This document shows positions 14,005 to 64,000 of a stretch of DNA of 64,000 nt, piece after piece. The stretch comes from Candidatus Omnitrophota bacterium (GTDB lineage Bacteria; Omnitrophota; Gorgyraeia; Gygaellales; Profunditerraquicolaceae), in the NCBI GenBank assembly GCA_028717245.1, contig JAQUOD010000004.1:65508-129507 (forward strand), read 5' to 3'. The notes beneath the pieces were generated by a model, which was given only the letters and a program-made list of their open reading frames with translations, did no database searches and was not told the origin of the DNA. Position numbers and translations under genes: made by a program. The number at the start of each line of letters is the position of its first letter. Position 1 is the first letter of the stretch.

Positions 14005-14739
14005 TTAATTATCTTTTAATAAATCCGGCCTTGATTTTTTGGTAATTTTTAAGGCTTGTTTTTTTCTCCACTGCGCTATTTTTTTATGATTACCTGATAA
14101 AAGGATTGCCGGGACCTTCATGCCTTGATAATTGGCAGGCCTGGTATACTGTGGATACTCCAATAGATTACCCGTAAATGACTCAAAATTCAAGGAATTT
14201 TTATCCCCCAATACACCCGGGATAAGGCGCACTAAGGCATCCACTAAAACCATAGCCGGCAATTCCCCGCCGGTCAAGACATAGTCGCCGATAGAGATCT
14301 CTTCATCCACAAGAGAAAGCCGCACCCTTTCGTCTATGCCTTCATAATGCCCGCAGATTAAAATGAGGTGCTTACATTTGGCCAACTTTTGCGCTACTCT
14401 TTGATTTAATTTCTCACCCCGCGGGCATAATAAAATAACTTTTGTTTTTTTCGTATCGCGTATCGCGTATCGCGTATCGCGTATCTTCGATGCACGACGA
14501 AAAATATCATTCACTGCCCGGAATATGGGCTCTGGGTTTATCACCATGCCTGAGCCGCCGCCAAAAGGCCGGTCATCGACTTTCCTGTGTTTATCCAAAG
14601 TATAATCCCGCAGGTTATGGATGTAAATCTTGACCTTACCTTTATTTTGCGCCCGCTTGAGAATAGATTCATTCAGCACGGGTTCGAACATCTTGGGGAA
14701 TATGGTGAGGATATCTATACGCATCGTATAAGGTATCAA
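14005..14739 (-). CDS. trmD: tRNA (guanine37-N1)-methyltransferase. Carries an in-frame heptamer tandem repeat insertion.
   Basis: [17 protein letters not shown]..., typical TrmD. The (CGTATCG)x4.5 array at 14452-14485 encodes [12 protein letters not shown] in a variable loop. Confidence 0.9.
14452..14485. repeat. Heptamer tandem array (CGTATCG)n inside the trmD coding sequence, in frame.
   Basis: cgtatcgcgtatcgcgtatcgcgtatcgcgtatc, read directly. Confidence 0.85.
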
Positions 14740-14805
14740 AGTATCAAGGTGTCAAGGTATCAAAGTTTTTTCTTTGACACAATGACACCTGACACTATGA
14801 CACTT
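14732..14805. repeat. Junction palindrome (GTATCAAR)n-T6-(TGACACN)n between tgt and trmD.
   Basis: ggtatcaaagtatcaaggtgtcaaggtatcaaag tttttt ctttgacacaatgacacctgacactatgacact. Same word family as 33893-33960. Confidence 0.75.
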
Positions 14806-61178: not shown

Positions 61179-63116
61179 TTAGGCTATCTTCTTCAATGCC
61201 TCATTAATTAAAAGGTTATCTTCTAAAGTATTGATTCGGGGCTTACTCATCCAGACCTCTTCAACCTTTTTACTCAAGGCGCCTGTGCCGGTTAAATATA
61301 GATATTTATCCTGCGCAAGATGTTTCAGGAATCGCTTATGCCTCCTGCCTAATCCCGGCGCTTGAAAAACCAATACGTATTTTTGGCCGCTGGCTGCCTC
61401 GGAAATCATGGAGATACTCTCCGGGGAAGTAATGACTATTTTACTCAAGGCCAAAATTCCGGCTACGGCATGAGGGATATTTTTTTCATTCGCGATAATC
61501 AGGAGTTTACAGCGAGGATAAGCGCCGAATTCATCCTTTAATAATTGTTCGATTTCCTGCGGCGTCCTGCGGGAAGTAGTAATCAAGATCTGCGCATCCA
61601 GTTTTTCTAAAATTGCCTTAAGCTGAGTTGCTATCTTCTTTATTAAGTCCCTGCTTAAACGAAAGGACTTGTTGTCGCCGCCTATCAACAACCCCAAGAC
61701 CAATTCTTTATCCGTTTTCACCTGTTCACTTAAATTAATCCCCTGCTCTCTAAGAAAATCCGCGTTGATGCTATTTAACGCGCCCCTGACTGCCGCGATA
61801 TTCTTTCTTTTGGCTGGCCGGTCGTGCTGGCTCATTACTACCAGGTCAAATTTTCTCGTACTCAAAATAGATGGCCGCATAATCGCCACTGACCTGGCTA
61901 AGTTTTCTTTTGCCAAAAGGTAATTAACCGGCGCAACCGATGAACCGCAGGAGATGACGATATCAGGCTTAATACCTATCAAAGATTTATAATTAGCTCC
62001 CTTAAGGAATACCCTTAAAAAGAGATTGCCCTGGTAACAGTATTTACCCGTCATAGAAGCGCATATGGTAAGGGCATACCGGGAAAATTTATTTTTAAAT
62101 TCCGGCTCTAAGGTAATAATATTTGCGCTGATAGCTTTATTTTTCAGATGGCCCATAAGCATCCCGGCAATGGCCTGGGATTGGCGCAGGTGCCCTGCCT
62201 TACCGTCGCTGAGAATGAGGATATCGCGCTCCCGTGAATATTTCCAGACCTTATAAAACCAGAGGTATTCCTTAGGATGCTCCAGGATATATCTTTCAAA
62301 TATATTAATCACTCTCTGTAAATTATCGCGGATATCTTTTTCTGAATCGCGGGTCTTCTCAATCTCAACCGGGCCATCAAGAAAAACTTTCACATAAGGG
62401 CCTTTCACCCGGGTATAAAAAGCCGTAATAATACTGGCGTTGTATCTTAAAGCCAACTTTAGCGCGCCTGTGGACATAGAGGCAGACTTACCGAAAAACT
62501 CAACCGGTGTGCCTGTCTTCCCTCCCTGGTCCACGGTCATACCCACAGCTTCGTTATTCTTAAGCAGCCGGATCAGTTCCCGTATCTCATTCCCCTTCTG
62601 GATAAGCCGGCAGCCCTTCTGGCTGCGGTATGAATTGAGCAAGTTATTTAAACGGGGATAATTTTGCTGCCGGATAAATAAATTAAAAGGAAAACCCAGA
62701 TACGCGCAGAGGGCGCTGGAGAGCTCCCAACTGCCTTCATGCACTGCTACAAGGATAACACCCTTGCCTTTATGAAAACCCGCGGTTATATTCTGCCTGC
62801 CTTCAAAAGTGATATATTTATCAATATAGGCCTTATCTATTAAAGGGATAAGCAGTATCTCAATCAGGTTCTGGCCGAATGACCGGTAAGAATCTTTGGC
62901 CAGCTTATGTAATTCTGCCGGCGATAGCTTGGCGCCAAACGCAGTCTTAATATTGGCGTAGGCGGTCTTCCTATGTTTAGCGTCTAAATAATAAAATAAT
63001 TCGCCTAATCTTGCCCCAAGGAAGAAGCTGACGCATAAAGGCAAGTGTCTCAGCAGCGCGCCTATAAGCTTAAGAAGAATACAGCCCCAGTAATCTATTA
63101 TAGAATCTCTCTTCAT
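61179..63116 (-). CDS. Lipid A late acyltransferase (LpxL/HtrB family) fused to a C-terminal ELM1-like (DUF1022) domain.
   Basis: N-terminal LpxL-like HEGSWE motif region. C-terminal ILILSDGKAGHLRQSQAIAGML resembles the Mito_fiss_Elm1 family start. Confidence 0.6.
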   Translation of the reverse strand: MKRDSIIDYWGCILLKLIGALLRHLPLCVSFFLGARLGELFYYLDAKHRKTAYANIKTAFGAKLSPAELHKLAKDSYRSFGQNLIEILLIPLIDKAYIDKYITFEGRQNITAGFHKGKGVILVAVHEGSWELSSALCAYLGFPFNLFIRQQNYPRLNNLLNSYRSQKGCRLIQKGNEIRELIRLLKNNEAVGMTVDQGGKTGTPVEFFGKSASMSTGALKLALRYNASIITAFYTRVKGPYVKVFLDGPVEIEKTRDSEKDIRDNLQRVINIFERYILEHPKEYLWFYKVWKYSRERDILILSDGKAGHLRQSQAIAGMLMGHLKNKAISANIITLEPEFKNKFSRYALTICASMTGKYCYQGNLFLRVFLKGANYKSLIGIKPDIVISCGSSVAPVNYLLAKENLARSVAIMRPSILSTRKFDLVVMSQHDRPAKRKNIAAVRGALNSINADFLREQGINLSEQVKTDKELVLGLLIGGDNKSFRLSRDLIKKIATQLKAILEKLDAQILITTSRRTPQEIEQLLKDEFGAYPRCKLLIIANEKNIPHAVAGILALSKIVITSPESISMISEAASGQKYVLVFQAPGLGRRHKRFLKHLAQDKYLYLTGTGALSKKVEEVWMSKPRINTLEDNLLINEALKKIA

Positions 63117-64000
63117 CTTTAATAATTTTTAGTTTGATACATAATACAATAAGCTGTAAGCTGTAAGCTGTAAGCTGTAAGCTGTAAAGCCTGACTGCGT
63201 CTTTTTCGGTAGTAATAATAGTATCGATGTTTTTATCCTGAGCGCTCTTGATGATATTGTCTATGTCCTGCTGTGTATAATTGTGGTGGTCGCGAAATTT
63301 AAAAACCAAGCCCACTTCCATACCCATACCCTTAACCAGGTTCTCGAAGGAATCCGGATCACCTATCCCCGAAAACAGAGCTATTCTCTTTCCCTGCAAT
63401 GCATCAGCGCCTATTGCTTCATGGGTGCCTGTCTTATAAAAATCCACCGGTTGATGTATGGATTCTATAATCAGCGCCCGGGGATTAATCCCGGATAAAA
63501 AATCTTTTATCTTGTTGTTGGCCGTGCCAAAATTGGTTTTAGTCAGGAAAAAAACATCCGCGCGCCTTAACGAAGAAAGCGGCTCGCGCAGGATTCCCCG
63601 CGGGATGAGGTTACGATTGCCGAAAGGGCAGGTAGCATCAATAGCCACGATCTCCAAATCCTTCTTTATCCGCCACTGCTGAAACCCATCATCCAGGATA
63701 ACCGTGTCTACGCCATAATCCCGGATTGCCTTTTTAGCGCTACGGATCCTGTCCGCATCCACTATTACCGGTACATCTTTCAGATTCATTTTCAGCATAT
63801 AAGGTTCGTCACCTAAATTCTCGTAATCGGTAATCGGCAATCGGCAATTGGTAATTTTTCTTTTATAGCCGCGGCTTAAAATTGCTACCTTGTGCCCTTT
63901 GCTTTTTAAATACCGCGCGATTAAGGCAACCAGAGAAGTCTTTCCTGTACCGCCTAAAGTAATATTACCGACGCTGATAACCCTGCACTTTAAACGGCAG
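63070..64000 (-). CDS. lpxK: Tetraacyldisaccharide 4'-kinase (5' end beyond the window). It contains an in-frame (CGGTAAT / CGGCAAT)n repeat and a C-terminal (AAGCTGT)n-encoded extension.
   Basis: The minus-strand frame continues upstream of the track start with no stop. Upstream translation gives VGNITLGGTGKTSLVALIARYLKSKGHKVAILSRGYKRK, the LpxK P-loop, followed by DDGFQQ. Confidence 0.8.
   Translation of the reverse strand, partial: CRLKCRVISVGNITLGGTGKTSLVALIARYLKSKGHKVAILSRGYKRKITNCRLPITDYENLGDEPYMLKMNLKDVPVIVDADRIRSAKKAIRDYGVDTVILDDGFQQWRIKKDLEIVAIDATCPFGNRNLIPRGILREPLSSLRRADVFFLTKTNFGTANNKIKDFLSGINPRALIIESIHQPVDFYKTGTHEAIGADALQGKRIALFSGIGDPDSFENLVKGMGMEVGLVFKFRDHHNYTQQDIDNIIKSAQDKNIDTIITTEKDAVRLYSLQLTAYSLQLIVLCIKLKIIKDEERFYNRLLGLYSS
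63152..63188. repeat. (AAGCTGT)x5 heptamer array at the lpxK 3' end / lpxL-like gene start region.
   Basis: aagctgtaagctgtaagctgtaagctgtaagctgtaaag. Confidence 0.85.
63822..63856. repeat. (CGGTAAT / CGGCAAT) heptamer array in frame inside lpxK.
   Basis: cgtaatcggtaatcggcaatcggcaattggtaatt, encoding ITNCRLPITDY. Confidence 0.8.

Follow-up and report, generated by a model that had tools for sequence, protein, structure and literature searches.

How can tandem repeats with a unit of seven nucleotides persist inside conserved genes without breaking their reading frames? This question is raised by a stretch of 64,000 nucleotides from a Candidatus Omnitrophota bacterium (assembly GCA_028717245.1, contig JAQUOD010000004.1, positions 65,508 to 129,507; the window, in what follows), in which heptamer arrays lie within trmD, tgt, a fusion gene of two GT9 glycosyltransferase halves and other conserved genes. 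An initial annotation of the window had compared these arrays with the Rickettsia palindromic elements (RPEs). We consider it fairly likely that they are instead hypermutable elements made of heptamers and hairpins, similar to the short tandemly repeated repetitive (STRR) sequences and small dispersed repeats (SDRs) of cyanobacteria, and that selection has filtered them to permissive loops, signal peptides and linkers. The interest of the finding lies mainly in the clade-wide, in-frame residence of such arrays in core enzymes and in the quantisation of their lengths in steps of 21 nt.

Heptamer arrays inside reading frames of the window

Tandem arrays in the window were identified with Tandem Repeats Finder (TRF) and with an exact-repeat scan. 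Among the perfect arrays of at least three copies and periods of 4 to 12 nt, six have a period of 7, all six of them inside open reading frames (ORFs), and the sole array of another period is one 9-mer. Shuffled versions of the window contained 0.0 period-7 arrays (100 mononucleotide and 100 3-mer-block shuffles). Both searches and the shuffles confirm the initial proposal that heptamer arrays lie within reading frames, and the peptides quoted with that proposal agree with the translations. The accompanying view that heptamers are typical of the intergenic junctions did not hold, since the intergenic arrays of the window are mostly 8- and 9-mers (TRF). Imperfect or degenerate heptamer arrays are also present, in ispG, lpxK, the genes for a SpoIID-like and an UshA-like protein and the N-terminal half of the GT9 fusion. 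Across each heptamer array the three frames are used in turn, which gives a peptide with a period of seven residues.

Genes were called as ORFs and identified by NCBIfam profile scores, which confirmed TrmD, Tgt, IspG, LpxK, PurA and Dxr and also recognised a double heptosyltransferase (GT9; heptosyltransferase II) and the SpoIID-like and UshA-like proteins. The long ORFs are all encoded by the minus strand, coding sequence makes up about 95% of the window, and the GC skew is negative from end to end (1-64000). An Rfam search of the window matched nothing, and Pfam and NCBIfam scans of 20 window proteins showed no transposase, integrase or reverse transcriptase. The arrays of trmD, tgt and the GT9 fusion are as follows.

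14440-14502, minus strand: trmD hot-spot of 63 nt, TrmD residues 75-95.
14452-14485, minus strand: perfect trmD array found by TRF and the exact scan, (CGTATCG)x4.9 in plus-strand letters and (CGATACG)x4.9 on the coding strand.
15371-15436, minus strand: tgt hot-spot of 66 nt, Tgt residues 172-193.
15370-15409, minus strand: perfect tgt array (GTGTTTG)x5.7 in plus-strand letters, found by TRF and the exact scan.
15412-15435, minus strand: perfect tgt array (CCGATAA)x3.4 in plus-strand letters, found by TRF and the exact scan.
54975-55007, minus strand: perfect GT9 linker array, (CAAGTCA)x4.7 on the coding strand and (TGACTTG) in plus-strand letters, encoding VTSHKSQVTSQ (residues 335-345).
55574-55650, minus strand: (GTCAGGT) array in the N-terminal half of the GT9 fusion, split within a unit, between GTC and AGGT, by two 21-nt palindromes.
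55613-55633, minus strand: 21-nt palindrome CCCGCCAAAAATATTGGCGGG in the GT9 N-terminal half.
55592-55612, minus strand: 21-nt palindrome TCCGCCAAGCATTTTGGCGGA in the GT9 N-terminal half.

In the trmD hot-spot, the (CGATACG)x4.9 array is preceded by the remnant of a partner array, CGTCGTGCATCG, and structure alignment with S. aureus TrmD shows the segment as a 14-aa insertion. The tgt hot-spot reads (GTTATCG)x3, CGAACAC and (CAAACAC)x5 on the coding strand, nine units in all, and is a net insertion of 9 aa relative to the structure of Z. mobilis Tgt. In the AlphaFold 2 models, TrmD residues 81-93 are predicted as coil with a predicted local distance difference test score (pLDDT) below 50, between a helix (64-80) and a strand (94-105); Tgt residues 178-192 likewise have pLDDT below 50 and lie between a helix (153-179) and a strand (194-199). 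The inserts had been proposed to map to surface loops. This is borne out for TrmD and Tgt, where frame-preserving additions fall in low-confidence loops leading from helix to strand, but not for LpxK, where no net insertion was found.

The linker array joins the two GT9 (heptosyltransferase) halves of the fusion, and its predicted RNA fold has an energy of 0 kcal/mol. The split array of the N-terminal half folds at -37.4 kcal/mol (z = -3.3), and its two palindromes together make up 42 nt, in frame, at residues 122-145. The hairpin insert described at first as similar to a miniature inverted-repeat transposable element is present and in frame, and consists of two 21-nt palindromes of one family, which we call H1 (pattern YCCGCCA-N7-TGGCGGR).

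The preservation of the frame inside an intact gene is partly tautological. What is not trivial is the abundance of arrays within genes, the exclusive period of 7 and the quantisation of array length in 21-nt steps among relatives.

Hot-spots and their turnover among relatives

The comparison covered an Omnitrophota set of 852 kb from 87 related loci and a control set of 1.24 Mb of unrelated bacterial loci, namely the matches listed for Tgt in distant bacteria (at most 61% identity); loci are designated here by L and a number. Orthologs were compared for Tgt, TrmD and the GT9 fusion (120 each) and for the SpoIID-like protein, and the comparison of relatives at the DNA level was confined to the tgt-trmD neighbourhood. 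The Omnitrophota set contains 65 perfect heptamer arrays, 56 of which (about 85%) are in ORFs of at least 120 codons, and perfect arrays of every other period from 2 to 12 number at most four each. When imperfect arrays were allowed and redundancy was removed, TRF gave 96 arrays of period 7 in ORFs and 32 outside, and 7 arrays of period 8 in ORFs and 17 outside. Heptamers are still the commonest class in the control set, where they are about four times rarer than in Omnitrophota and concentrated in few genomes.

The 66 distinct ORF arrays are built from almost as many different units. The sense-strand unit is free of stop codons in 60 of the 66 and the antisense unit in 27, the random expectation being 69%, and the 8 arrays outside ORFs nearly all have stops on both strands. 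All of the approximately 360 orthologs examined (Tgt, TrmD and GT9) are in frame. The stop-free bias of the sense strand, together with segment lengths that are multiples of three, speaks for translation straight through the arrays by ribosomes.

Among the 120 closest Tgt orthologs, which have 72-81% identity, the same site after the motif DWAKRSK varies in nearly all, and its peptides are plainly 7-periodic with many different units. Segment lengths were obtained for 117 sequences and group at 7-8 aa (30 sequences), 14-16 aa (32), 22-23 aa (23) and 25 aa (15); counted in DNA, they amount to 21/24, 42/45 and 63/66 nt, so that the length classes are steps of three heptamers (21 nt). Nine units (63 nt) are present in the window, in L081 and in L084, split as 3+6 in the window and as 4+5 in the two relatives: the tgt gene of L081 (81% protein identity to the window) has (GTTATCG)4, (CGAACAC)4 and CGAATAC, and that of L084 has (GTTCTCG)4 and (CGAACAC)3 plus further, partly degenerate units. 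The unit variant CAAACAC, which corresponds to CGAACAC in the relatives, has been homogenised in the window. The suggestion of the initial annotation that selection acts on the total insert length is thus supported by the 21-nt steps and by neighbouring arrays that compensate for each other. Truncated members of the Tgt cluster (244 aa) were considered as frameshifts induced by the array and rejected, as they are N-terminally short gene calls with the array intact.

The TrmD hot-spot is likewise hypervariable at the same site in the 120 orthologs, with a period of 7 aa and many different units, and even the "baseline" form of the protein (KSKVKSQKSKV and similar) corresponds in the DNA to about 4.3 heptamer units in tandem. 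The GT9 fusion behaves likewise at both of its array sites, which are hot-spots among its orthologs, and the linker is 7-aa-periodic with differing units in most of the 70 orthologs displayed. At the N-terminal site of the SpoIID-like protein, the relatives L088-L166 have perfect heptamer arrays of about 17 different units. Most arrays thus look like resident microsatellites at ancient hot-spots common to nearly all Omnitrophota orthologs, and not like the recent lineage-specific insertions that had been supposed. As read from the aligned genes, the repeat sequence at the compared hot-spots differs among close relatives. We also considered whether the GT9 fusion was made by a stop-free array bridging two genes, and rejected this, since the fusion is kept in 120 of 120 orthologs; judged from these sequences, it is ancestral to the clade.

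Many of the composite arrays can form hairpins. GUUAUCG pairs with CGAACAC at five of seven positions, and the composites of L081 and L084 fold as regular hairpins of 5-bp helices parted by 2x2 mismatches (L081 tgt, -29.5 kcal/mol, z = -5.6; L081 trmD, -33.5 kcal/mol, z = -5.2; L084 tgt, -27.8 kcal/mol, z = -4.0). This pairing is lost in the Tgt array of the window (z = -0.7). The trmD hot-spot of the window folds at -20.2 kcal/mol (z = -2.0; z = -3.2 for a 75-nt segment). Among the long distinct hot-spot segments, z is below -2 in 14 of 32 for Tgt and in 7 of 10 for TrmD. The palindromic nature ascribed to the arrays at large therefore applies to many composites (z down to -5.6), to H1 and to the palindrome H2 described below, but neither to the GT9 linker nor to the Tgt array of the window.

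Comparison of closely related strains revealed a rapid turnover. Unrelated arrays occur in proteins at least 90% identical (same 90% cluster), and L170 and L172, whose DNA is 97-99% identical, have (GCACAAC)4 versus (GGTTCTC..)(CGAACAC)4 in Tgt. The spacer between fhs and fchA (L084 15033-15106; L087 7474-7591) is filled by either of two entirely unlike cassettes, with flanks of 100% and 99.93% identity; L084/L086 differ in this from L085/L087, and each form comes from two independent samples. One form has about nine copies of (GTCGTAA), which begin within the fhs stop codon and have stops in all three frames, and the other consists of (TCGTTNTT)4, a GC-rich hairpin and an inverted array. Copying between genes was also observed, as the tgt and trmD genes of L081 both carry the composite (GGTTATC)4GG(CGAACAC)5, the second half of which is degenerate in trmD.

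The 21-nt palindromes are polymorphic in the same way. Inside the trmD array, there are no H1 copies in L123, one in L169 and two in L168, strains that are 96-97% identical to one another, and the insertion is precise and inside a unit, between AAAGT and CAC. In another case, L168 has (GTTGCCC)2, a 21-nt hairpin and (GTTGCCC)2, whereas L169, about 97% identical, has (GTTGCCC)3, a 42-nt hairpin and (GTTGCCC)1. H1 was also detected inside the Tgt array of L106. Strain variation in the repeats is therefore real, and takes the form of whole-array replacement and of zero, one or two H1 copies between strains 96-99% identical. A second palindrome, H2 (CCTGCCTGCCGGCAGGCAGG), is perfect, about 20-21 nt long and encodes peptides such as LPAGRQ and CLSGRQA. 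Its pattern was matched 34 times, at about 20 places, in the Omnitrophota set (852 kb) and once in the control set (1.24 Mb), and it is near-identical across genomes whose proteins share only 54-73% identity. H2 is located within gene arrays and also at the centre of intergenic inverted 8-mer arrays, and is not in the window when 3 mismatches are allowed.

Similar arrays were found in a Terriglobia metagenome-assembled genome (MAG; L030, JBEKEZ010000001.1), which has 20 heptamer arrays in 21 kb (2801-11872), many of them inverted pairs of the GGGAGTA/GGGATTC type and several inside ORFs of 639 and 1106 aa. In its tgt gene (10550-10661), an in-frame inverted pair (GGGAGTA)n...(TACTCCC)n adds about 45 aa at the Tgt loop used in Omnitrophota. 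The loop is therefore a permissive site in which arrays have settled independently, and Omnitrophota are not alone in showing the phenomenon. The expectation that orthologs of unrelated lineages would be free of the same segments stands only in part: this MAG has analogous arrays at the same loop, built from (GGGAGTA) units of its own.

Known systems and rival explanations

The closest analogues appear to be the heptamer STRRs of cyanobacteria with their nested SDR hairpins, and heptanucleotide long simple sequence repeats (SSRs) generally. Mazel in 1990 and Elhai et al. in 2008 reportedly described, in Nostocales, dispersed heptamer STRR arrays with nested SDR hairpins of 21-27 nt that differ between related genomes, and the later work is said to distinguish eight SDR families in Nostoc. 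We know of no transposase for the cyanobacterial STRRs and SDRs. The arrays studied here share with them the head-to-tail 7-nt arrays, at many loci and far above chance, and the dispersed short hairpins nested in heptamer arrays with insertion polymorphism, represented here by the 21-nt H1 and H2, which behave like the SDRs reported from Nostoc. They differ in that they belong to Omnitrophota, lie mostly in frame in conserved genes at orthologous hot-spots and have site-specific units, whereas the cyanobacterial STRRs are reportedly few genome-wide words. Neither a mainly intergenic location nor a small set of words, as in STRRs and long SSRs, was found (56 of 65 arrays in ORFs; diverse units).

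In the summary that PMC4679880 gives of Mrazek 2007, heptamers are the dominant period of long SSRs (class LSSR5-11). GGGNATC repeats of Xanthomonas and Nostoc are over-represented between genes and under-represented in coding regions (PMC4692102), and TAACTGA repeats occur in Beggiatoaceae, Cyanobacteria and Bacteroidetes, lying upstream of start codons in Beggiatoaceae; reversed TAACTGA would translate as a 7-aa repeat, and stop codons limit its orientation in or near genes (PMC4679880). The dominance of heptamers (also in our controls), the inverted pairs and the stop-limited orientation agree with our data. In long SSRs, however, one word usually dominates a genome, while here about 85% of the arrays are in ORFs, units are diverse, palindromes are nested and arrays are about four times as dense as in the control set.

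RPEs have a length of about 150 bp and form ten families, with 44 copies in R. conorii, nearly half of them in frame in ORFs (PMC10969869). The arrays resemble them in that palindromic repeats lie in frame within unrelated housekeeping genes, at positions compatible with the fold and with no known benefit; LpxK is an exception to in-frame insertion at tolerated positions because it shows no net insertion. The copying and the insertions and deletions among near-identical strains add to this, and the outcome therefore resembles that of the Rickettsia RPEs. The elements themselves are of another kind. RPEs have a conserved family consensus and encoded peptide, whereas no element of about 100-150 bp with such a consensus was found here, and instead there are site-specific 7-nt units, arrays of 21-66 nt and palindromes of 21 nt; the slippage-like length steps and ancient shared hot-spots also contrast with the scattered, unique insertion sites of RPEs. 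The analogy drawn by the initial annotation thus holds for the outcome (in-frame residence, palindromic composites, copying and strain-level indels) and fails for the class of element.

Repetitive extragenic palindromic (REP) and REPIN elements are mobilised by RAYT transposases and are extragenic (PMC3116915). Like them, H1 and H2 are short GC-rich palindromes with many copies, often inverted, non-autonomous and kept in sequence within a lineage, but they occur in frame inside genes and embedded in tandem arrays, and no RAYT was seen among the 20 window proteins scanned within the 64 kb. The Borg elements are reported to contain perfect, rapidly evolving tandem repeats within ORFs that make disordered protein segments, with units divisible by three. 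The arrays studied here would share with them the fast-evolving repeats in ORFs that create new protein segments. The unit here is 7 nt and not divisible by three, so the frame can be kept only by three-unit steps or by compensation. Our literature search found no paper describing such arrays in Omnitrophota.

On the reading that we favour, the arrays gain and lose 7-nt units quickly and turn over far faster than the flanking DNA, as the observed turnover and concerted unit change show, and the motor would most likely be slippage during replication, on loops that exceed the size handled by mismatch repair. Arrays and composites are also copied among sites, and 21-nt palindromes enter or leave arrays, as the duplicated composite and the insertion polymorphism show. 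A heptamer within a gene is read in all three frames in turn as a 7-residue repeat, as the stop-free sense bias and the segment lengths show. Selection would then keep units without a stop in any sense frame, net lengths that are multiples of three (by three-unit steps, or by a +1 in one array offset by a -1 in its neighbour) and tolerated positions, such as surface loops between helix and strand, signal peptides or membrane anchors and interdomain linkers. In this way TrmD, Tgt, the GT9 fusion and the SpoIID-like protein would have come to possess ancient hot-spots that stay "live" permanently, and the arrays are probably of no use to the host enzymes.

Several observations weigh against this reading. 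No transposase-like gene was found among the 20 scanned window proteins and no enzyme for copying or insertion was identified. The sharing of units between non-orthologous sites is rare, with 4 coincidences among 66 arrays, about 0.8 being expected by chance on our own estimate. Slippage alone would favour units of 3, 6 or 9 nt in genes, yet the period is 7, and most intergenic arrays are 8- or 9-mers, which may point to the action of several processes. High slippage should yield out-of-frame alleles, and none were seen, though the searches used would miss them. The clade-wide persistence of live arrays at the same sites could instead mean positive selection. The ortholog sets are phylogenetically non-independent and their gene calls ORF-based, and the AlphaFold 2 models of TrmD and Tgt, built on ortholog alignments, have a mean pLDDT of only 74 and 66.

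Among the alternatives, the one that survives best, though we find it unlikely, is that the arrays are purely local microsatellites, each with a single origin from a native heptamer and changed only by slippage, with nothing mobile and with palindromes arising from quasi-palindrome correction. The same native codons (...AAA GCG GTT..) start the Tgt arrays in several lineages, short forms such as AVIGEHRH and AVFGEHRQ resemble collapsed or unexpanded long forms, orthologous units change in concert (CGAACAC to CAAACAC) and most units are confined to one site, all of which would follow from local origins. Such origins do not account, however, for the identical two-array composite in two genes of L081, for H2 at about 20 places in divergent genomes and its near absence from control DNA, for the precise presence or absence of 21 or 42 nt of H1 within a unit, or for the wholesale replacement of the fhs-fchA spacer between near-identical flanks. 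The occurrence of the word TAAGCTG at four sites of the window, one copy being in reverse orientation, points in the same direction.

At a somewhat lower probability still, arrays of 7-nt period and palindromes of 21 nt (3 x 7) might be actively written into DNA by dedicated machinery, and a hairpin-recognising nuclease, a Y1 transposase or a template-switching or reverse-transcribing polymerase might be the writer. If this were true, the arrays would represent the smallest known class of mobile element and would be shared among uncultivated phyla (by Omnitrophota and, at the same Tgt loop, by at least one Terriglobia MAG), with elements that are open in all frames, colonise essential genes and continually remodel the surface loops of proteins.

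We regard it as improbable that the arrays are selected functional elements, such as ribosome-pausing or transcript-stabilising hairpins, protein-binding sites or flexible linkers and anchors that the proteins need. In favour of a function, a very large majority of orthologs have an occupied hot-spot even where they diverged deeply, H2 shows strong sequence conservation from one divergent genome to another, stable hairpins are frequent, and related 8-mer arrays lie directly upstream of start codons, as in the proposal for the TAACTGA repeats of Beggiatoaceae (PMC4679880). A function of this kind is difficult to reconcile with the 30 of 117 Tgt orthologs that have only 7-8 aa and no array and are otherwise conserved, with the interchange of unrelated arrays in proteins at least 90% identical, and with sites at which neither the sequence nor the hairpin is kept (z = -0.7 for Tgt in the window). 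The TrmD and Tgt peptides, moreover, lie in low-confidence loops.

Contingency loci, in which 7-nt units toggle genes by frameshift (phase variation), are a very unlikely explanation. A unit that is not a multiple of three within an ORF is the classical signature of such loci, as is generally known from Haemophilus and Neisseria, but out-of-frame alleles and hosts among surface, virulence or restriction-modification genes were not what we found: the hosts are core genes, with trmD, ispG and lpxK generally known as essential in model bacteria, all of the roughly 360 orthologs are in frame, and housekeeping proteins unrelated to one another also have arrays in their signal peptides or linkers. 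An assembly or sequencing artefact is effectively refuted, for although an independent Logan contig (SRR22315508), obtained with L19, matches window 10803-14185 at 100% identity but breaks off short of the trmD array and exact look-ups of the window Tgt, TrmD and QueA gave no record in independent assemblies, the arrays (24-66 nt) are shorter than one sequencing read, are identical in independent assemblies of different samples (L081-L083; L084-L087), recur in hundreds of orthologs (NCBI, JGI, ENA, Logan) and have intact reading frames.

Further repeats of the window and significance

The window contains additional heptamer arrays, as follows.

29232-29263, minus strand: degenerate (GACTATC)x4.6 array in ispG, encoding RLSTSDYRLST (residues 287-297).
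63822-63855, minus strand: degenerate (CGATTAC/CGATTGC) array in lpxK, encoding ITNCRLPITDY between the RGYKRK and GDEPYM motifs.
63150-63187, minus strand: perfect array (CAGCTTA)x5.4 (coding strand) at the 3' end of lpxK, of the plus-strand TAAGCTG family, encoding YSLQLTAYSLQL near the LpxK C-terminus.
48011-48042, minus strand: perfect array (CAGCTTA)x4.6 (coding strand) in the LptC-like gene, encoding YSLQLTAYSL in the membrane anchor.
48080-48107, minus strand: degenerate GTCA-NNN heptamers (GTCACAA GTCAGGT GTCATAA ATCAGGT) at the N-terminus of the LptC-like protein.
18046-18081, minus strand: degenerate (CGTTAGT)-type array in the SpoIID-like gene, encoding LVVSRLSLVVSS in an N-terminal hydrophobic segment.
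42015-42043, minus strand: (TTGTTGG)-type array in the gene of the UshA-like 5'-nucleotidase family, in the signal-peptide region LLVVGYWLLA.
32351-32386, minus strand: intergenic TAAGCTG-family array in the opposite orientation (the minus strand reads GTAAGCC/GTAAGCT), directly upstream of the dxr start codon.
56016-56032: two-copy trace of the TAAGCTG family.

The ispG segment is a net insertion of 5 aa compared with A. aeolicus IspG (3noy). Directly 3' of this array on the coding strand lies a hairpin, CGGCCAATAAAATTGGCCG, which we considered as a copy of H1 and set aside, since it has 2 mismatches, overlaps the conserved IspG motif PIKLAVMGC in the 3noy alignment and may be due to chance. 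The N-terminal lpxK array was present as described at first, with lpxK in frame to the window end, but it aligns with the native segment SKG-TLIVSEYGNL of A. aeolicus LpxK with zero net gain in length, and so replaces native sequence. The gene labelled lptA at first scores as LptC-like (NCBIfam). Its array at 48011-48042 and that at 63150-63187 in lpxK are one circular heptamer (TAAGCTG), and its N-terminal array at 48080-48107 shares words with both GT9 arrays. The repeat MNSMNSMNS, ascribed to the purA N-terminus, comes from a 9-mer array (38955-38989) upstream of the start of the PurA family alignment (residue 12); this array is half of an intergenic inverted array and is probably not translated.

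Other repeats were noted in the window. An imperfect 8-mer family (AACATTCA on the plus strand, UGAAUGUU on the mRNA strand) occurs at 6010-6044, 15940-15984, 29011-29062, 46413-46459 and 52450-52479; in at least five genes the start codon is directly preceded by one of its arrays, and one array overlaps the ispG stop codon. By analogy with the Beggiatoaceae TAACTGA repeats, which they resemble, these arrays may be an element of translation initiation or of the untranslated region. Intergenic inverted pairs of 7-, 8- or 9-mer arrays form long hairpins at 14726-14804, 33899-33964, 38955-39037, 44812-44916 and 58968-59070 and may be terminators or mRNA-stabilising structures. An intergenic repeat of about 150 nt is present twice (19919-20066 and 53512-53660), with 100% identity in the first 75 nt and 95% in the next 75 and with no Rfam match; it may represent a mobile element of small size or an RNA that has escaped annotation. 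Another dispersed element, about 74 nt long and with paired GGGGACAGTCCC-type hairpins, has three intergenic copies or part-copies (9498-9571, 21035-21052 and 21099-21172).

The lipopolysaccharide (LPS) genes of the window include several conserved fusions, among them GT9-GT9. Two further putative LPS-gene fusions were read from the translations, without a family search: a glycosyltransferase-GT9 protein (59079-61175) and an acyltransferase with a further domain (61179-63116). Heptamer arrays were also seen in two distant genomes. L001, a Planctomycetia-labelled MAG with the best Tgt among the matches listed (61%), has AGCTGTA/AGCTATA arrays at 14613-14640 and 20360-20394, the same circular word as TAAGCTG of the window, and L057, a Poribacteria MAG, has CAGTTAA/TAACTGG/TTAACTA arrays at 7203-7295 and 13914-13948 that resemble the published TAACTGA family.

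According to a recent survey, trinucleotide repeats dominate prokaryotic coding DNA, and units within genes are expected to be divisible by three (PMC12699852), an expectation that this clade systematically breaks. The arrays point to mutation in a rhythm of 7 nt, powerful enough to maintain live microsatellites in conserved and partly essential enzymes (TrmD, Tgt, IspG and LpxK) among the relatives sampled, and selection would only trim its outcome to 21-nt steps. They would offer a second, independent lineage in which to study the mechanism behind the cyanobacterial STRRs and SDRs, and a natural system for slippage rates, for the blind spots of mismatch repair and for the tolerance of protein loops to insertions. 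On the practical side, the arrays inflate the apparent divergence of proteins and may break short-k-mer assemblies, and they could serve as very fast strain markers in Omnitrophota.

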